Sequence record: MK373778.1
Strand: one strand, 5' to 3'
DNA from: Escherichia phage vB_EcoM_WFbE185
Length of the DNA stretch: 64,000 bases
Part shown: positions 1 to 62,947 of the stretch, piece by piece
Layout of the letters: each line of letters starts with the position of its first letter
Numbering within the stretch: the stretch's first letter is position 1
The notes under the pieces: model-generated
What the model saw: only the letters and a program-made list of their open reading frames with translations
The model's database searches: none
What the model was told of the DNA's origin: nothing
Program-made: the position numbers and the translations under genes

Positions 1-2214
1 TTATTTGGCCGCTTCCACGGCCTTCATGAATTTAACGATTTGAGCGACCTGTTCTTTTGAAAGAGTACCACGTCGTCCCATGTATTCTGACACAATATGA
101 TAATTGGTTTCGAATTCAATAACCATTTTATCATCATTATCATAAGCATTATCTTTAAGCTTATCGAAAATTTTAGCACACAATTCTAACTTCTTATTCA
201 GGTCTGTATTAGTAGCACCTGCGAATCGATTCCATCCCCAACGATTATTTACTGTTGAGAGTTTTGCAAAGTCTTTACTGATTTCTTTGTTCTTAGAGCT
301 AAAATACTTACTAAGGAAGTTAAGCTCTTCATTACGAGTAATATGATTCAAATAAGGCTGTGCTCTACGACTTGGTGATACATACTCATCATAATCTACT
401 TTATCGATTAGCATAATATAGTCATTAATTGATTTTTCAAACAAACATTCTACTTCACCAAGTTTACGAACTTTCTTAGCAATCTGTGGACGGACTACAG
501 TGAACTCTTTAATACCTGACAAATCGGCAATACGGGTCAAGAAATTAGAGTCGTAGTTCAACCAACCTTTATCTGCGTCAAGACATTCAGCATTAGAACG
601 ATTACGAACTATAGCATAACCTTGGATTTCATCAGCTTCACTCGCTGGAATAAAGAGATCTTCCGATACCCAAACATCGTTTTCATTCTTAAAGAACCGA
701 TGAGCACTTGGGGATTTAGGACGAGGCCCATTAGAACGAGTCTTGACTTCAATCCATGGCTTAACGATTTGTAAAAGCTCTGAAGTCTTGTACATGTTAA
801 TGTTGTCGCCATCAAAGATAACTTTAAGGCGTTCCAGAAGTTTCATTGCATCTTCGTCTGTAGGGTCAACGAATAGTACGCTTTTACCAAAACCGCGTGG
901 AACTTTACCGGTTAATTTAACCTCGTCTTTAGACATTTCAATTGAATTAAGAGCTCGCATTAATGGAACGCGTCCCTTAACGTCGTCAATAACAATTTCA
1001 ACGTTTTTAATGTTAATGCCAATCAGACTGTTAATTGAAATAGTTGTCGATGAGCTACCACTTTCACGAATACGACGAAGACGAGGGGATTCAACGATAT
1101 CGTATACGACACCAAGATTACACCACTCAGGCCCCATTTTAAAACGTTTGTACAACTCAGAATAAGTTAGTTGTTCTTTAGAGTATTTCAGTGATTCAAT
1201 ATTAGACCCAGCCTTTTCCATGTATTTACGAGCGGTATAACCAAGAGAATCAATTTCACGGAACACATGACGCGGGTATTTACAATCAATCCATTTCTTA
1301 GAATCTTCAGCGAACAATTTAGCATCGATTTCTGCAACGCGTTTATGGATATTTGCTACTGTACGTTTATCAAATGACAATGCTTCACGAGACGGGGCTA
1401 CATCTAGTTCACCCATAGGGAATTTAATATAAGCTGTAGTGCATCGCGTCATCATCCATGTTTGTTCTTTAATAACACTTCCGATTGGATATACAATACC
1501 ACCATAAACAGCCATGATATTACCACGTTCACCCCATGGAGCTTCCTTGGCCAAATATACATCGTCAAATTCAGGAAAGTATTTAATATCTTTAACACCA
1601 CGAACTTCTGCAATATCACCTAGAGGACGCATAACATATGCAATTTCAGATGCGAACTTTTCAAAATCTTCTGGGTTAACAGGCACAACTACTTCAACGC
1701 CGGTCTGGTCATCAGGACCCATCTTATCTACAAAGGTCGGCTTAATTTGTGGACCCGTGTCATCTTGGTAGATTACGTAACCACGAACTTCACCGTTGTG
1801 ATAAGACGTAAGGTTAAACGTATCGGTATATGCTAGTGGAGCTTTAGAGCCGAGTCCGAATCCACCAATGAAATCGTTACTCGATGTTTTAGTTGAAGCA
1901 AAATATGAGTTATAGATTCCTGGCTCTTCGTCATTACCTCTAATGGTGAAATCGCTCATACCAGGACCAAAGTCTCGAACTACAAAACGTGGGTCCAAAC
2001 GACCTGGAGCCTGAACAATAAACTTATCGGTGCAACCATTAAGAATTTGTCCATCGATACAGTTTGTGATTAATTCACGTACACAAGCCAATTCTTTGTT
2101 TGTATAAAGGTCATTAGACAAAATCTTATAAACTTTGCTATTGCCTTGAATAGTGAATGCTGTGCTCTTACCGCCTGAACCAATAATCGTTTCTTTAGCC
2201 GTTTCAATAATCAT
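1..2214 (-). CDS. rIIA: rIIA protein (737 aa), GHKL/Bergerat-type ATPase-like N-terminal region
   Basis: Size and position match T4 rIIA (about 725 aa, next to gene 39 region); N-terminal motifs ELITNCIDG and DFGPGMS resemble ATPase N and G1 boxes. Confidence 0.8.
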   Translation of the reverse strand: MIIETAKETIIGSGGKSTAFTIQGNSKVYKILSNDLYTNKELACVRELITNCIDGQILNGCTDKFIVQAPGRLDPRFVVRDFGPGMSDFTIRGNDEEPGIYNSYFASTKTSSNDFIGGFGLGSKAPLAYTDTFNLTSYHNGEVRGYVIYQDDTGPQIKPTFVDKMGPDDQTGVEVVVPVNPEDFEKFASEIAYVMRPLGDIAEVRGVKDIKYFPEFDDVYLAKEAPWGERGNIMAVYGGIVYPIGSVIKEQTWMMTRCTTAYIKFPMGELDVAPSREALSFDKRTVANIHKRVAEIDAKLFAEDSKKWIDCKYPRHVFREIDSLGYTARKYMEKAGSNIESLKYSKEQLTYSELYKRFKMGPEWCNLGVVYDIVESPRLRRIRESGSSSTTISINSLIGINIKNVEIVIDDVKGRVPLMRALNSIEMSKDEVKLTGKVPRGFGKSVLFVDPTDEDAMKLLERLKVIFDGDNINMYKTSELLQIVKPWIEVKTRSNGPRPKSPSAHRFFKNENDVWVSEDLFIPASEADEIQGYAIVRNRSNAECLDADKGWLNYDSNFLTRIADLSGIKEFTVVRPQIAKKVRKLGEVECLFEKSINDYIMLIDKVDYDEYVSPSRRAQPYLNHITRNEELNFLSKYFSSKNKEISKDFAKLSTVNNRWGWNRFAGATNTDLNKKLELCAKIFDKLKDNAYDNDDKMVIEFETNYHIVSEYMGRRGTLSKEQVAQIVKFMKAVEAAK

Positions 2215-2427: not shown

Positions 2428-2519
2428 AATATTCTCTTCAGTAGATTCCTAGGGCACTATTACTAAAGACCATATAATCTATCATCTTATGTGTAATAGT
2501 TCCTCAGGCGATTCAGGAT

Positions 2520-3620
2520 TTACGCTGTGAAGATTTTATCCCACATCGCAACAACTGCATCTCGGTTATACTTCTTCCATACGGCTTCAGCACGTTTAAC
2601 TCGAGCTTCGTATGTGTCAGTGAATTCTAATACAGCTTTTGTGTAAAGCGCAACTACTTCTTTCTTAGGAGTAGAGGAATCAATTTCTACACGCACAGTA
2701 TCTGGGTCGTATTCGAATGTCGCGTGCGGATAATCCTTAAAAACTAACTGAATCACAGGGACACCTTTAGAGATGGCTTCAATAGAACTATTCTCTACCG
2801 TACCCGTGTCAGGACACGTATTGATAAGTGCTTTAGCTGTTTTAAGACGTTCCATGATTTCACTGTGTGGAGCATCAATAATAACAGGATACTTAGCCGG
2901 TGGTGCCCATTTACTAGGACAGTATCCTGCACCATTTTCGCCTAGTGCTTTAATCGCTTCAAGAGCAACATCAGTACGACGCATTTTAGTGTCATAACGT
3001 TGTGCACTAATAATCAGATCAGTCGCCGGAAGAACTTCAGGTTTCTCATTCAAACAAATAACCGGATAATCTTCGGCTTCAAACAATGGATTTGCTCGCC
3101 AATAATCATAATCAATTTTGTCAGTAAGACCTGAAGTCATATAACAATATTTGCGTTCAAATTCACGGAAGGCTTTAGTAGGAGCATAACTCTTACCACC
3201 ATTCTTATGAATTTGAATAGTCTGGTCCCAAATTTGAACAATGCCACGAGATACCGGTTCAAATGGTGTTGCCATAAAATTCTTATGAACTTTAGAGAGA
3301 CCTGCGTCTTTAATTGCCTGAACGGTTAGTTTGGTCGGTTCCATTGTAACAACGAAATCGTACTCATTAATGCCGGCTAGTTCAACAATCTTACGAGCCA
3401 TAGTATAACTCATACCTAGACTGAATTTAGTCAGATGACCAACAGGATGATGATTAACCTTCCAGTCACCAAACGTGTCATTATCAAAGCCGATATAATC
3501 AATATCAGCACCGATGGACACAAGATATTTCAACACATTTAAATGTACTGCTTCAAGACCACCTTGTACACGTTCTGGGTTAAATGGGACTGCGCGAGAT
3601 GGGATAAACATAACTTTCAT
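2520..3620 (-). CDS. GT-B fold (GT4-like) glycosyltransferase, candidate DNA hmC sugar transferase
   Basis: 366 aa; N-terminal MKVMFIPS...GGLE and C-terminal GTVENSSIEAISKGVPVI resemble the GT4 E-x7-E donor-binding motif; occupies the slot where T4 has gene 60/mobA. Confidence 0.6.
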   Translation of the reverse strand: MKVMFIPSRAVPFNPERVQGGLEAVHLNVLKYLVSIGADIDYIGFDNDTFGDWKVNHHPVGHLTKFSLGMSYTMARKIVELAGINEYDFVVTMEPTKLTVQAIKDAGLSKVHKNFMATPFEPVSRGIVQIWDQTIQIHKNGGKSYAPTKAFREFERKYCYMTSGLTDKIDYDYWRANPLFEAEDYPVICLNEKPEVLPATDLIISAQRYDTKMRRTDVALEAIKALGENGAGYCPSKWAPPAKYPVIIDAPHSEIMERLKTAKALINTCPDTGTVENSSIEAISKGVPVIQLVFKDYPHATFEYDPDTVRVEIDSSTPKKEVVALYTKAVLEFTDTYEARVKRAEAVWKKYNRDAVVAMWDKIFTA

Positions 3621-3664: not shown

Positions 3665-5480
3665 AGGACATCCATTCTTTACGAAGTTCTGAATCATCAC
3701 CCAACAACATTTCAAAGAGTTCTTTCCAATTTTCAGGAAGTTTAACTACGTCGTACACAGGGTTCTGAATCATTTCACGATACTCTGACTTTTCAAGGGA
3801 GCCTAATCCCTTGATGTATCGAATACTATGCTTAGGCAGTGTATCTTTAACTTCTTCATACTCAGCTACAGTATAAAACCATTTTTGAGTTTTGCCAATT
3901 TGTGCAATAATTACAGGTGTTTTAACAAAGCGAATACGTCCTTGTTCAAACAATTCGGGCCAATTACTAAAGAAAGCAAGCAAAGCAGGATAAATACTTC
4001 CAAGACCGTCGTGATCGGCATCGGTCATAATTGCAATATTACGATAGTTCGTATTCTCTGCCTTTTCACCAAGAATAAGACCTGTGATAGCACAGATATC
4101 AAAGAGTTCTTTGTTCTTCATCATATCAGCATATGACATACCCCAGCTATTCATCACCTTACCACGTAATGGGAATCCGCCGTGTAGTTCACGGTCACGA
4201 ACATCAATGAGATAACCAATTGCCGAATCACCTTCTGTTAAAAACAATGTCGTATCTGCATCTTTACCACATTGGTTAGCTTTAATATGCTTATGAACCT
4301 TAGCTTTAGTTGCCTTTTTAGCTGCTTTAGTTTCTGCAGCCTTTTCTGCTGCCAATTTACGAGCTAATGCTGCTTCAACAATAGGCATAATCAAGGCTTC
4401 GTTTTTAAGAAGTGCCTGAGCAATTTTCTTAGCATCTAATTGGATATGATTACGAATATCACCATACGTTGACGTTAAACGTTCTTTAGTCTGAGAATCA
4501 AAACGCATGTTGCTCATGTCTCTAATAAACATCAACATTGTGAGACATTCTTTAACACGAGCTTTAGTGACTTCAATACCCTTATATTTCTTTTTAATAC
4601 CGGGCAAAAGATGTTCGCAGATATCATCCATTACACATTCAACATGATGACCACCATTTTTAGTATGGATGTTATTCACATAAGTTAAATGACGGAAGCC
4701 ATCTGGTGATGTTGTGAATGCTATAGAGACTTTATCATTTTCTTGAATGATGTTATCTTCACCAAATTGTTTAGCAAATCGTTTAAAATTACCATCAACC
4801 TTTTTACCATTAAATGTGAACTTGATATCAGGATAAACGACTGCCAATGTTTGAAGTCTGTCTAAAGTAATATCTAAATAAATTTGAGATAAATTATGCT
4901 CTTCAAATGAAGAGAAATCAGGAGTGAAGATTACTTTAGTGCCTTTACCTTTAGATTTCTTAGAAGACCATGATTTGTTTTCCATTCCGTTTGAACAGTT
5001 AACAGTGATTTCGTTTTCGCCATCTGACGTGATGCCTGTAAACAACGTAGAGAAGATATTAGTTAAACTACTCCCGACGCCGTTCATACCACCAGTCTTG
5101 CGTTCAGAGTCATCACCAAAGTTACCACCGGCCTTTGGAATAGTCCAGGCTGCTACAGGTCCAGGAATTTGTTCACCTGTTTGGTCGGTAACTAAACCTT
5201 GAGGAATACCACGTCCGTTATCTTCCACAGAAACTTGATTATTTTTAATTTGCACATCAATTTTATTTGCAAACTTAAATGATGTACGAATAGCTTCATC
5301 AACCGAGTTGTCAATAATCTCATCGATTAATTTAACCAGACCAGGAACATATTCAACTTGTTGATATTTACCAAACAAAAAACGCTCGTGGGCTTCTTTA
5401 GCAGAAGAACCAATATACATACCACTACGTTTCTTAATATGTTCTACATCTGACAATACCTTAATTTCATTTTTAATCAT
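3663..5480 (-). CDS. 39: DNA topoisomerase II large subunit, unsplit (T4 gp39+gp60 equivalent), 605 aa
   Basis: GyrB-like signature KKRSGMYIGS and EDNGRGIP; continuous 605-aa ORF with no gene-60-type interruption. Confidence 0.9.
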   Translation of the reverse strand: MIKNEIKVLSDVEHIKKRSGMYIGSSAKEAHERFLFGKYQQVEYVPGLVKLIDEIIDNSVDEAIRTSFKFANKIDVQIKNNQVSVEDNGRGIPQGLVTDQTGEQIPGPVAAWTIPKAGGNFGDDSERKTGGMNGVGSSLTNIFSTLFTGITSDGENEITVNCSNGMENKSWSSKKSKGKGTKVIFTPDFSSFEEHNLSQIYLDITLDRLQTLAVVYPDIKFTFNGKKVDGNFKRFAKQFGEDNIIQENDKVSIAFTTSPDGFRHLTYVNNIHTKNGGHHVECVMDDICEHLLPGIKKKYKGIEVTKARVKECLTMLMFIRDMSNMRFDSQTKERLTSTYGDIRNHIQLDAKKIAQALLKNEALIMPIVEAALARKLAAEKAAETKAAKKATKAKVHKHIKANQCGKDADTTLFLTEGDSAIGYLIDVRDRELHGGFPLRGKVMNSWGMSYADMMKNKELFDICAITGLILGEKAENTNYRNIAIMTDADHDGLGSIYPALLAFFSNWPELFEQGRIRFVKTPVIIAQIGKTQKWFYTVAEYEEVKDTLPKHSIRYIKGLGSLEKSEYREMIQNPVYDVVKLPENWKELFEMLLGDDSELRKEWMS

Positions 5481-14972: not shown

Positions 14973-15209
14973 TTAACCACTTACCGGTGTAGGGGTAAAC
15001 ATTGCAGCGTTCTTAGTTTTCCAAGTTGCTGCATCAGAAACGACATCAGAATAAGCTGCCTTTTCTGATGGAAAGATTTGGTAATGAGAATCTGCAATCC
15101 GATGTTCGTTTGAATAAATCTCAAACGGTACAGAAACTTCCATACCTTTAACTTCTTTGCCTTCACCAGCCGGATGTGTAAAGGTTTTGATATTAACGTA
15201 ACCACCCAT
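14973..15209 (-). CDS. soc: small outer capsid protein Soc
   Basis: 78 aa; YVNIKTF...HYQ.FPSEKAAYS matches T4 Soc; late promoter upstream and terminator downstream. Confidence 0.8.
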   Translation of the reverse strand: MGGYVNIKTFTHPAGEGKEVKGMEVSVPFEIYSNEHRIADSHYQIFPSEKAAYSDVVSDAATWKTKNAAMFTPTPVSG

Positions 15210-15240
15210 AATTAACTCCTTTGTTGTTTAATTACAGGTG

Positions 15241-15248
15241 TATTTATA
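15241..15248 (-). promoter_or_regulatory. late promoter box TATAAATA for soc
   Basis: Exact TATAAATA on minus strand about 30 nt upstream of soc ATG, followed by AAGGAG SD. Confidence 0.65.
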
Positions 15249-15254
15249 ACTTAA

Positions 15255-15791
15255 TCAGTAACCATTATCCTGGCGTTCAAAGTTGTGTTGGTTTTTCAAG
15301 TAGTAAAGTTTAAAGATTTCTTCAGCGGAAAGACCCAGACCTTGGAACATGTTCAGAACGAAATGGAGAATATCAATCATTTCAAACTTAATTTCCAGTT
15401 GGTCTTCAGGAGACAGTTCATCGATACGACGATTTCGATATTCAGCATGTTGTGCTTTCCATGGCTTCCATACAGAGCTAGCGGCTTTCTCGCCATTGCT
15501 CATACCGCCAAGTGAAGTCAGCAGTTCACGGAATTCATCATCAATATAATCTTTCTGATTACGCAGCCAATCAACAACATCACCAGCAGTAGCCAATTCA
15601 TCAGGATGTTTGTTATGTTCAGGCTTGTCATTTGCCAGACGAACCTGTAAAGATTTCTGCATATCAAGCATTACCTGCAGTGGGTCTTTATCTTCGTGAA
15701 TCAGAGCATTAAAATAAGCTTCTTCTGCTTTATCAACACCAGAAATAAGTTGTGAACATTCGTTAAAGTGCGCCATTATTTTTCCTTTCAA
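15255..15791 (-). CDS. 56: dCTPase-dUTPase (gp56-like nucleotide pyrophosphohydrolase)
   Basis: 178 aa; position between soc and primase as in T4; assignment by position and size. Confidence 0.6.
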   Translation of the reverse strand: MKGKIMAHFNECSQLISGVDKAEEAYFNALIHEDKDPLQVMLDMQKSLQVRLANDKPEHNKHPDELATAGDVVDWLRNQKDYIDDEFRELLTSLGGMSNGEKAASSVWKPWKAQHAEYRNRRIDELSPEDQLEIKFEMIDILHFVLNMFQGLGLSAEEIFKLYYLKNQHNFERQDNGY

Positions 15792-15864
15792 TTCAGTATA
15801 AGAGAGTTAATTCTAACATTAATTTTATAAAGCGTAATAAATAATAGGTAACTAAGGAGATATT

Positions 15865-16062
15865 ATGTTTAAACTTCCATCGTTAATCAACGCTATTAAA
15901 GGCAATAAAAAGAAAACTGCTATCGCTGCAATAGTTGTAGGTGGCATTATTTCATGGAACTTCGGGATTGCGCCATTGTTAGTTGCCCATGGTATTATAG
16001 TTCCTTCTGTTCCATTGGATACTGTAGTTGATTTGGCCTTTGCTATTATAGGGCTTGTTTAA
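15865..16062 (+). CDS. small hydrophobic membrane protein (65 aa) on plus strand
   Basis: Strong SD AAGGAG 7 nt before ATG; lies in the gap between 56 and 61, convergent with primase. Confidence 0.5.
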   Translation: MFKLPSLINAIKGNKKKTAIAAIVVGGIISWNFGIAPLLVAHGIIVPSVPLDTVVDLAFAIIGLV

Positions 16063-17081
16063 ATCTTCGAATAACGAGATAATCTCATTTTAGCATGCAA
16101 CCCACTTGAAATATTCTGTTTCATATATTCTAAAATTTCTTGTGGTGTTGCATTTTCTTTCATTACCATATCATTCACATCCTTTGATCTCCATGGAGCT
16201 CGGTCCCAGAACATGACACGTTCGCCTGCATCAACTAATCGCTTCATGCGAGCTATAGTATCCGGATGCCTAGGTTCATTATCCATTACCCATACCCGAC
16301 GTTCTTTAAATGGTACCACATCTAAATCTATTGAGCCGCCTGTAATAGCGATTGCATTGGGTATGAATAAACTATCAATAGGACCTTCCATTACCCAGAC
16401 GTCTCCTTCCTTAACACGTTCAACACCATAAATTTTTGTTGCAGACTCAAACGCTTTAATAGTGATATATTTCTGAGGAGCATCTTTACGAAGTGCACGT
16501 CCTTGGAATGACTCGGCCTTCCCATCTTTATTAAAAATAGGAATCACTAAACGTGGTTCGGGAATCTCTTTCTTATACGTACCAGGTTGAATCTTGTTGA
16601 CCAATTTAGGCCATTCTAATGTGAACCATAATCTGTTCCATGATTCTTTAGGAATACACCGAGACTTAACATATTTCACAATAGGATGCTCTTCAGGCAA
16701 CTTGTCCAGACGAGAACAAGACGGCAAAGAATTTATAGTCTTTTTCTCTGGCTCCGGCTTAGCTTCAGGAACCTTTTCAATCTTTGGTTCCATTCTAGCT
16801 TTTTCTTTACGAACTTCCATTAGATATTCGCGATAAAGCTCTTCATCATACTCTTTTAAGTATCCGGAAATTGTATTGTGGTATTGACAATTATAGCAAT
16901 GTACATTACCAGGAGTACCACCGTAATACCATCCGCGGGCTTTCATTGCATCTGTCTGGGAGTCGCCACAAACTGGACATCGAAATGTTAATTTAAATGT
17001 GCTTGAATTATTGATTTGTCTAAAACGAGGGAGGTGAGAAAACGCACGATAAGCAAATTCATTATCTATCCATTCAGCCAT
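16059..17081 (-). CDS. 61: DNA primase gp61
   Basis: 340 aa; N-terminal zinc ribbon CPVCGDS...CYNC; context next to helicase gene cluster. Confidence 0.85.
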   Translation of the reverse strand: MAEWIDNEFAYRAFSHLPRFRQINNSSTFKLTFRCPVCGDSQTDAMKARGWYYGGTPGNVHCYNCQYHNTISGYLKEYDEELYREYLMEVRKEKARMEPKIEKVPEAKPEPEKKTINSLPSCSRLDKLPEEHPIVKYVKSRCIPKESWNRLWFTLEWPKLVNKIQPGTYKKEIPEPRLVIPIFNKDGKAESFQGRALRKDAPQKYITIKAFESATKIYGVERVKEGDVWVMEGPIDSLFIPNAIAITGGSIDLDVVPFKERRVWVMDNEPRHPDTIARMKRLVDAGERVMFWDRAPWRSKDVNDMVMKENATPQEILEYMKQNISSGLHAKMRLSRYSKI

Positions 17082-17120
17082 AGTATTCTCCAGAGGCCTT
17101 AAATTAATAAGGCCATCATA

Positions 17121-17615
17121 TCACAACTTATTAATATTTACTTTAATTCGCTTTCTTTTCTTGGAAGGAATTTGTTCTGGACCTTTATTTACGACTGCAC
17201 CTGTAGTTGTTCCTGATGCAATAGCTTGAGGACTGCCGCCTGAATCACCAGCAACCATATCCTCAAATAAAGGGAGTTCTTTAAATATTTCTTTCTGTTG
17301 TTCTTCCGTAATGTTATAGCGTGAAGCTACAGCACTCCAAGCAGACATCATTGAGGCCATTCCATTAAGACCTGGAACAGTGCTCATCATTCGCTTCATT
17401 GAACGAACTGAAGCATGAAAAGGTGTATACGCCGCTTTTTCTTCGGGAGTAGAAGGACGTTTAAGAACACTTCCACGTTCATCGATGATTTTGGCTTCGT
17501 ATGCTTTCCATTCGGTAAAAGGTTTTTGCATTAGTCGAATAAACTTATATGCGTAAACAGAATCTATTGCAGTGTTAATAATACCCATAGGTACCTCCTG
17601 AGTATATTTAATCAA
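17121..17615 (-). CDS. hypothetical protein (164 aa, 61.1 position)
   Basis: ORF; C-terminal basic tail. Confidence 0.5.
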   Translation of the reverse strand: MIKYTQEVPMGIINTAIDSVYAYKFIRLMQKPFTEWKAYEAKIIDERGSVLKRPSTPEEKAAYTPFHASVRSMKRMMSTVPGLNGMASMMSAWSAVASRYNITEEQQKEIFKELPLFEDMVAGDSGGSPQAIASGTTTGAVVNKGPEQIPSKKRKRIKVNINKL

Positions 17616-17805
17616 TTACAAAGATTGCTTTGTCACCATTTATATCTGTGACTTCATATGTAGTGCCTTCATACTGTGGAATATTCCAAATTACACCGTC
17701 ATTAGCTTTTACGCTAATATGGCATTGGTGTTTTGAAACAACTTCATAATCTTCAAAACTTGTAAAAACACTAATTTTAGAACCAGTGCAAATTGCAGTA
17801 GTCAT
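17608..17805 (-). CDS. hypothetical small protein (65 aa)
   Basis: ORF in operon context. Confidence 0.4.
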   Translation of the reverse strand: MTTAICTGSKISVFTSFEDYEVVSKHQCHISVKANDGVIWNIPQYEGTTYEVTDINGDKAIFVID

Positions 17806-17806
17806 T

Positions 17807-18466
17807 TTAACCTCGATTCATAAATGCATTAAATATTTGGTCATCAACAGAAATTTCTAATTCGACTTCAATTGCTTCAGCCTTTTCTTCAGGTGGTAAT
17901 TCGTATCCACACACTACAATTTTTTCATCGATATCAAAATATACAGAAGCAATACGATTAATGTTATTTTCAGTTAAGTCTAAATCAACATCAACATCTT
18001 TTTGGCCTACACTTAGAGGATAACTAATACGGGTTATTTTATTATCTTTAACAAAGAGTCCACCAACATACTCTGTACTACGTTTGAAGTTTACACGTTT
18101 CCGAATTGAAAGATATGATGCATCTTTACCGTGAGCTCGGCTCATAGGACATAATGAATAGCTAGAATAAGAGATGTCAAATCCTACACCTTCAATATGA
18201 GCCAACGTGTCATGATTAAACCAATTATAATCATATGCCAAATCCATTATATTGTAATATGTGAAAGGCACAGGATTAACATCATATGTTGTACCTTTAA
18301 AATCTGCCCAGGCAACGATTTCGTTATCTTTAACAATTACAAAAATTACACCAATATGGTATCCGTTATTATTTTCATTCGGCGTTATATTATAACATTG
18401 TGCATTAGGAAATTTACCATATTTAAATGGCGCATTTTTGTGCATATAATAAATCATATTATTCAC
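17807..18466 (-). CDS. hypothetical protein (219 aa)
   Basis: ORF; no recognised motif. Confidence 0.5.
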   Translation of the reverse strand: MNNMIYYMHKNAPFKYGKFPNAQCYNITPNENNNGYHIGVIFVIVKDNEIVAWADFKGTTYDVNPVPFTYYNIMDLAYDYNWFNHDTLAHIEGVGFDISYSSYSLCPMSRAHGKDASYLSIRKRVNFKRSTEYVGGLFVKDNKITRISYPLSVGQKDVDVDLDLTENNINRIASVYFDIDEKIVVCGYELPPEEKAEAIEVELEISVDDQIFNAFMNRG

Positions 18467-58487: not shown

Positions 58488-58688
58488 TTAGATAGATGTA
58501 GGCTCTAATTTTATTTTCATGAACTCGGCAAATTGTCTGGCAGTTTTTATGCCTTGTTCATGACATTCAAATGCATCATCACAGGGGCTATTTTTGTAAT
58601 GCTTTGCCATATACTTATAGAATTTTTCAGAATTCTCGACATTTTGAATTTCAAACAAAGTATATACGTTTTTAATACCTGATTCCAT
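58488..58688 (-). CDS. hypothetical small protein (66 aa)
   Basis: ORF. Confidence 0.4.
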   Translation of the reverse strand: MESGIKNVYTLFEIQNVENSEKFYKYMAKHYKNSPCDDAFECHEQGIKTARQFAEFMKIKLEPTSI

Positions 58689-58710
58689 AAAGTTATCAAA
58701 ATATGGGTCA

Positions 58711-58791
58711 ATATGTGCAGTACCAACGATAGGAGTTGTTGCTGCAAAAAAACCCCAGCATCGCTATGACAGCTATCGCTCTTAAGGCCAT
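58711..58791 (-). CDS. very small hydrophobic peptide (26 aa) with perfect SD AGGAGG
   Basis: MALRAIAVIAMLGFFCSNNSYRWYCTY; locally GC-richer sequence than surroundings. Confidence 0.25.
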
Positions 58792-62584: not shown

Positions 62585-62947
62585 TTATAGACTCTCAGTA
62601 AAGGTACGAGCAATAACGTCACGCTGCTGTTCCGGAGTCAGAGAGTTAAAGCGAACTGCATAACCGGATACACGGATGGTCAACTGCGGATATTTTTCTG
62701 GATGCTTAACTGCATCTTCCAGAGTTTCACGACGCAGAACGTTAACGTTCAGGTGTTGACCACCTTCAATTTTAACTTTAGGTTGATGTTCAATTTCAAT
62801 TTCACGGGCATTCAAACCGTAGAAAATTTCCGGGTCTACAATAGCGTCTTCTTTAAAAGTCTTAGAGACAATAATCCGGGCCTGAGTACCGTCTTCAAAA
62901 TAAATAGTGCCTTTGTGTGCACCTTCAAGAATTTGATATGCTTTCAT
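62585..62947 (-). CDS. autonomous glycyl radical cofactor (GrcA/YfiD-like)
   Basis: C-terminal glycyl-radical signature [27 protein letters not shown]; a T4 homologue (Y06I) is known. Confidence 0.7.

Follow-up and report, generated by a model that had tools for sequence, protein, structure and literature searches.

The question raised by this locus is why a lone reading frame of 65 codons should face against the genes that surround it. Is the frame a gene at all, how would a gene so placed come to be transcribed, and what might its product do in the infected cell? The window considered here is a stretch of 64,000 nucleotides of Escherichia phage vB_EcoM_WFbE185 (MK373778.1) which, judged by its sequence relationships, is that of a Mosigvirus, an RB69-like T-even phage. 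A megablast search with positions 15200-17100 matched 543 phage records, the best of which are 98% identical over the full length and belong to RB69-like Mosigviruses. The gene order around the frame, modB - mrh - soc - 56 - [frame] - 61 - ... - sp - imm - dmd, is that of the T-even phages, and the elements from which the locus is built are these:

15255..15776, minus strand: gene 56, dCTPase, the divergent neighbour (phrog_173, E=1.6e-45; annotation in relatives)
15802..15842, minus strand: predicted MotA-type middle promoter of gene 56, RB69 Pm:16038 (score 21.6; Nolan et al. 2006)
15836..15843, plus strand: predicted late (gp55-type) promoter box, AATAAATA, a match to the T4-type late consensus 21 nt before the ATG
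15849 (+/- 1-2 nt), plus strand: predicted late transcription start, placed by the rule that the box occupies -13..-6 (PMC1524935)
15854..15859, plus strand: Shine-Dalgarno sequence AAGGAG, 5 nt 5' of the ATG, read from the sequence
15865..16062, plus strand: coding sequence of 65 aa with an ATG start, from the ORF list, a subtype A member of the RB69ORF029w / phrog_2024 family
16059..16062, both strands: TTAA, in which the convergent stop codons of the frame and of primase (TAA on each strand) overlap
16059..17081, minus strand: gene 61, DNA primase, the convergent neighbour (phrog_47, E=8.9e-102; annotation in relatives)

The earlier note had described the frame as a plus-strand gene in a minus-strand region, 65 aa long with a strong Shine-Dalgarno sequence, lying between gene 56 and primase and convergent with the latter, and this description is borne out on each point. 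The ORF list gives the product as MFKLPSLINAIKGNKKKTAIAAIVVGGIISWNFGIAPLLVAHGIIVPSVPLDTVVDLAFAIIGLV, and its start is unambiguous, with an in-frame stop just three codons ahead of the ATG. The profile matches confirm the identity of both neighbours. The overlap of the stop codons in TTAA that joins the gene to primase recurs in T4, in Karamvirus CkP1, in Kanagawavirus KLB31 and in Marfavirus PhiKpNIH-6. The isolation of the gene on its strand is most apparent in RB69, where its counterpart, RB69ORF029w, is the sole plus-strand feature among the 95 annotated in the first 50 kb.

RB69ORF029w (NP_861719) is the same gene, encoding 65 aa at the same position and on the same strand with a single substitution, I61V, and the window protein aligns with the phrog_2024 profile from end to end (E=1.9e-27; residues 1-65 on profile positions 1-65 of 65). 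There is no difference in kind between the window gene and these entries, both of which are annotated as "hypothetical protein" without an assigned function. The existence of the gene is already known in this form from RB69 and hundreds of its relatives, and the novelty of finding it is therefore low. What is added here to the RB69ORF029w family is a predicted late promoter, a division into A and B subtypes, and unannotated homologues in T4 and JS98. Of modest interest are the retention across 10 genera of a lone, opposite-facing gene within a block of ~95 genes, its apparently strictly late expression, its absence from the T4 (AF158101 / NC_000866) and JS98 annotations, and the two subtypes of a family limited to T-even-like phages.

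How secure is the frame as a gene? Its length alone lies within chance, since 48 ORFs of 30 aa or longer can be counted over the 6 kb around the locus, and it could be argued that what matters in this AT-rich intergenic region is the gene 56 promoter and that the frame has arisen there by chance. Chance frames of 30-90 aa abound in this region, nothing is annotated at the locus in the T4 and JS98 references, and the predicted middle promoter lies just upstream. Against this, the frame, its length, its Shine-Dalgarno sequence and its motif residues are conserved from Mosigvirus to phages of Klebsiella, Salmonella and Citrobacter at 20-55% identity, dN/dS is well below 1, and the PHROG match is full length. 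The spurious-frame reading is rejected on the grounds of selection and cross-genus conservation, and its remaining likelihood is close to nil. Three things set the frame apart from chance: it occupies a gap that would otherwise be non-coding, its ribosome-binding site is strong, and it is conserved under purifying selection. The ORF list holds no overlapping minus-strand frame that could account for this conservation.

The conservation can be followed at several levels. Homologues were found by tblastn in 692 phage records, with primase listed under nearly every match. Identity to the window protein is ~95-100% within Mosigvirus, ~54% in Tequatrovirus, including T4, and 45-49% in Gaprivervirus, with more distant homologues in phages of Klebsiella, Citrobacter, Salmonella and Enterobacter and in other T-even-like phages. 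Lengths range from 60 to 69 aa, with 74 aa in one Salmonella phage. In an alignment of 22 homologues 16 residues are invariant; W31, N32, P37 and G63 are so across all subtypes, and G43 and P47 nearly so. When the plus-strand frame of the window is compared with that of ESCO47 by the Nei-Gojobori method, dS is 1.43 and dN 0.14, and over all pairs with measurable dS the ratio lies at 0.04-0.36. Genomic contexts were opened beyond Mosigvirus in Tequatrovirus T4, Gaprivervirus CJ20 and TH41, Dhakavirus JS98, Jiaodavirus PKO111, Karamvirus CkP1, Kanagawavirus KLB31, Marfavirus PhiKpNIH-6 and Gelderlandvirus CGG4-1. Every one of them contains a plus-strand gene, 61-74 aa long, convergent with primase, often sharing the 4-nt stop overlap, so that position against the primase 3' end and strand are kept in 10 genera. 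A strong AGGAG(G) Shine-Dalgarno sequence is present in all 13 lineages examined. Judged by this purifying selection and synteny, the 65-aa frame is a genuine protein-coding gene.

In T4 the homologue is a frame of 66 aa at 17738..17938 on the plus strand, preceded by the Shine-Dalgarno sequence AAAGGAGG and with a product that begins MVQKLMALVNAIKGNKKR... Between dam and gene 61 it falls in an "empty" stretch of 309 nt, which on this account is not non-coding. The reference records NC_000866.4 and AF158101.6 carry no annotation for it, and no NCBI protein accession in a collection of 15 billion proteins corresponds exactly to its sequence. The JS98 homologue (1501..1701 of the extracted locus) is likewise unannotated. 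Literature searches on T4 small proteins and ribosome profiling, on RB69ORF029w and on late or antisense transcription near gene 61 yielded no mention of the ORF. The very well studied T4 system could gain one more late membrane player.

The family, which is confined to T-even-like phages, falls into two subtypes. Subtype A, to which the window protein belongs, has the pattern KLxxLIxAIKG...WNF...P...HG, and subtype B, of 66-67 aa (74 aa in CGG4-1), the pattern MGTxFYQIWKL...WNL. The two are paralogous (BLASTP, 35% identity over 34 aa, E=6e-6). The window, RB69 and T4 have A only, and JS98, PhiKpNIH-6 and CGG4-1 have B only; some phages carry both in tandem, in either order:

2805..3008 and 3001..3198 of the extracted ESCO47 locus: tandem paralogues, B then A
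2501..2698 and 2707..2907 of the extracted TH41 locus: tandem paralogues, A then B

The order B then A, with an 8-nt overlap, is shared by ESCO47 and a metagenomic relative. In the window itself the 65-aa protein has no paralogue, to judge from an HMM search of the ORFs in all six frames. Some Gapriverviruses retain only fragments of B, which appears to be decaying in them, and this suggests that A and B are partly redundant. Two B-type members are misnamed in public records, as "dCTP pyrophosphatase" in Salmonella phage CGG4-1 (locus 1501..1725) and as "DNA packaging ATPase" in Escherichia phage UPEC01; these names are probably errors of annotation transfer from neighbouring genes.

The family stands apart in the searches undertaken. 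Scans of the 65-aa protein against Pfam (at E<=0.1) and NCBIfam gave no family match, and a sequence profile search of the PDB gave none either. A profile search of 1.84 billion representative proteins yielded nine matches, all of them members of the RB69ORF029w family of 45-72 aa, and none ties the family to a characterised one.

How, then, would the gene be transcribed? The earlier note had proposed that it needs its own promoter and had pointed to a late-like A/T box upstream, a suggestion that the wider comparison strengthens. The T4 late consensus, TATAAATA, is situated at -13..-6, and in RB69 and other relatives the residue at -13 is A or T (PMC1524935); the box in the window has its core, ATAAATA, at 15837-15843. 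Counted on both strands of the 64-kb window this heptamer occurs seven times, against 28.1 +/- 4.7 expected from shuffles, which indicates that it is avoided. Five of the seven copies stand 21-31 nt upstream of a Shine-Dalgarno sequence and ATG, and the genes behind them are soc, gene 49, the rI homologue, the ORF upstream of rI (rI.1) and the 65-aa ORF itself. The two others, at 3990-3996 and 62900-62906 (both plus strand), are orphans without a Shine-Dalgarno sequence and ORF behind them, and may either mark antisense late starts or have no function.

In the first 50 kb of RB69 there are four copies of ATAAATA, one of them upstream of ORF029w; two others are the late promoters predicted for soc and gene 49 by Nolan et al. 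(2006), whose HMM scan of RB69 lists no plus-strand late promoter at ORF029w. The heptamer is kept exactly, 15-22 nt before the first ATG and within divergent flanks, in 11 of 13 lineages, with TTAAATA taking its place in the other two, and where two paralogues are present the late box precedes the first gene only. A scan of 15200..17700 found neither a plus-strand sigma-70-type promoter nor a terminator-like site. From these signals the ORF appears to be expressed strictly late.

Late genes of T-even phages, a class transcribed only once replication has begun and dependent on gp55, gp33 and gp45, are embedded elsewhere in the early region, and of these soc, gene 49 and rI have the same type of box and a strong Shine-Dalgarno sequence, with a box-to-ATG spacing of 22-31 nt compared with 21 nt for the window ORF. 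They differ from it in lying on the minus strand with their neighbours, where they can also be reached by read-through. That they are late and yet minus-strand means that the opposite orientation of the 65-aa gene is not necessary for late expression.

The gene 56-ORF spacer is 88 nt long. The 41-nt sequence of RB69 Pm:16038 is identical in the window at 15802-15842, and the upstream end of this predicted middle promoter overlaps the plus-strand late box, the two standing back-to-back, such that the spacer packs a predicted middle and a predicted late promoter, pointing apart, into a short region. Any late transcript of the plus strand would continue into the primase gene in antisense, and the ORF would in turn be crossed in antisense by early and middle transcripts that pass through primase on their way to gene 56. 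The transcriptional interference that had been suggested for the locus is plausible on this arrangement, given the lack of a terminator between the convergent genes and the back-to-back position of the late box and the gene 56 promoter.

The product is predicted to be a single-pass protein of the inner membrane with its N-terminus inside and its C-terminus outside. An AlphaFold2 (AF2) model built with the family alignment (pLDDT 84.6) has helices at 3-11, 15-41 and 51-62, and a summed Hessa-scale scan finds one insertable segment, at ~18-41, in every subtype. For RB69ORF029w the published TMHMM call is likewise one transmembrane segment, at 21-41. The orientation is favoured by the positive-inside rule, as the window protein has five Lys/Arg residues on the N-terminal flank of the segment and none on the C-terminal flank, with 4-6 and 0-1, respectively, over the subtypes. 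The description of the product as a small membrane protein thus holds, with the strong transmembrane helix, the flanking charges, the model and the TMHMM call all in agreement. The invariant Trp-Asn pair (W31 N32) is located mid-membrane within the predicted helix. An asparagine in the middle of a transmembrane helix is known to drive helix association. The C-terminal hydrophobic stretch was considered as a second transmembrane helix and this was judged unlikely, its summed insertion free energy being +4.7 to +12 kcal/mol in all subtypes; were it to form a second, re-entrant membrane helix, the topology would change.

The reading that best accommodates the locus, and to which a probability of about three in four is attached, is that of a small, self-contained late membrane-protein gene opposing an early/middle block of ~50 kb. 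In outline, RNA polymerase bearing gp55 would start at ~15849 only once replication has begun, and the short, monocistronic late mRNA would be translated into a bitopic inner-membrane protein. The N-terminal part would form a basic amphipathic helix in the cytoplasm, the single transmembrane helix at ~18-41 would carry the invariant mid-membrane Trp-Asn and a proline kink, and a tail of ~24 residues on the outside would consist of a Pro-rich turn and an acidic amphipathic helix. Through its mid-membrane asparagine the helix may associate with itself, with the B-type paralogue where one is present, or with another membrane protein. The placement on the opposite strand would most plausibly silence the gene early, as read-through from upstream early and middle promoters could not express the ORF and would instead yield antisense RNA across it. 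The protein would then be made late only, a timing to be expected of a membrane-active factor that works during assembly or lysis, and a late role connected with the envelope or with lysis is our working guess for it.

A quite different emphasis would place the function in the RNA, with a late plus-strand transcript shutting down the minus-strand 61-to-56 transcripts late in infection by collision or pairing and with the ORF of secondary importance. The geometry has much that would suit such a role: the convergent stops overlap, the scan of 15200..17700 shows no terminator-like site, the late box and the predicted gene 56 middle promoter overlap back-to-back, and the place beside primase is retained in all lineages. 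The pattern of selection speaks against it, for it is the amino-acid sequence that is constrained, with dN/dS at ~0.1 where dS is saturated, with residues that remain invariant across subtypes only 20-30% identical and with a strong Shine-Dalgarno sequence conserved. Moreover, the gene does not everywhere abut primase, some phages having either a second, paralogous ORF or a spacer of 118 nt in between, and the exact antisense geometry is accordingly not conserved. As the primary explanation an RNA-level element is very unlikely; RNA-level and protein effects could nonetheless coexist, and an antisense role is possible as a secondary effect. Could the protein instead be a holin-, pinholin- or antiholin-like lysis protein, one that permeabilises or depolarises the inner membrane or that tunes the T holin and lysis inhibition? 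It resembles the holins and antiholins (T4 T and RI, class II/III holins, pinholins) in being a small and, as predicted, late-promoter-driven, membrane-embedded protein whose cytoplasmic flank is basic and whose transmembrane helix contains a polar residue, Asn. It has at least the one predicted transmembrane helix that a holin needs, and a strictly late, antisense-insulated layout would suit a toxic membrane protein. In UniProt, moreover, an entry for the homologue in phage OE5505, which is of the T4 type, bears the label "Holin", but this is a single unreviewed name set against hundreds of entries for a "hypothetical protein".

The protein belongs to no holin family in Pfam, NCBIfam or PHROG, and Foldseek searches of the AF2 model against BFVD and the PDB return its own family only, or noise with E>1. 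The C-terminus is hydrophobic, its last 24 residues containing no Lys/Arg and ending ...AFAIIGLV, whereas the typical holin tail is charged and hydrophilic. A canonical holin assignment fails on this tail and on family membership. T-even phages already possess the T holin, the loss of which blocks lysis, and the 65-aa protein is hence not a sufficient holin; T, RI and RIII each have a gene of their own there. A holin-like or antiholin-like function is on balance unlikely. The type I toxins (Hok/Sok, TisB/IstR-1) offer a further analogy, in that the ORF too is short and hydrophobic and would lie over its whole length under antisense transcription, here the early and middle 61-to-56 read-through, which could silence it until its own promoter fired. 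The likeness is one of analogy only, since those toxins have a dedicated antisense small RNA and the ORF has neither such an RNA nor a sequence relation to them. Carried further, the analogy would make the gene a late factor of lysis timing, lysis inhibition or the envelope that is harmful early, its asparagine acting on T, RI or a host protein and its placement serving as a type-I-toxin-like antisense safety device from which the gp55 promoter releases it. This more specific proposal is a long shot, distinctly unlikely as it stands; if it were true, T4 itself would carry a conserved late gene that its annotation lacks and that is controlled in a way not described for this phage. Two small envelope proteins of superinfection exclusion, T4 Imm and Sp (spackle), are also encoded ~2.5-3 kb from the ORF, among the same group of accessory genes. 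Imm and Sp are early genes, and they are minus-strand where the ORF is plus-strand. The models PF14373 (Imm_superinfect) and PF25676 (T4_Spackle) match other genes of the locus, with no Pfam match to the ORF protein at E<=0.1.

The preferred reading of a self-contained late membrane-protein gene draws on a set of ATAAATA boxes that includes that of rI, the lysis-inhibition antiholin, and the rI homologue of the window shows a peculiarity of its own. It lies at 58488..58791 on the minus strand and is split by a +1 frameshift into a 27-aa N-terminal ORF (58708..58791) and a 66-aa C-terminal ORF (58488..58688), the homopolymer at ~58746-58752 consisting of 7 T (minus strand) in the window compared with 6 in RB69. 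The split reflects either a rapid-lysis r mutant or a sequencing error in the homopolymer.
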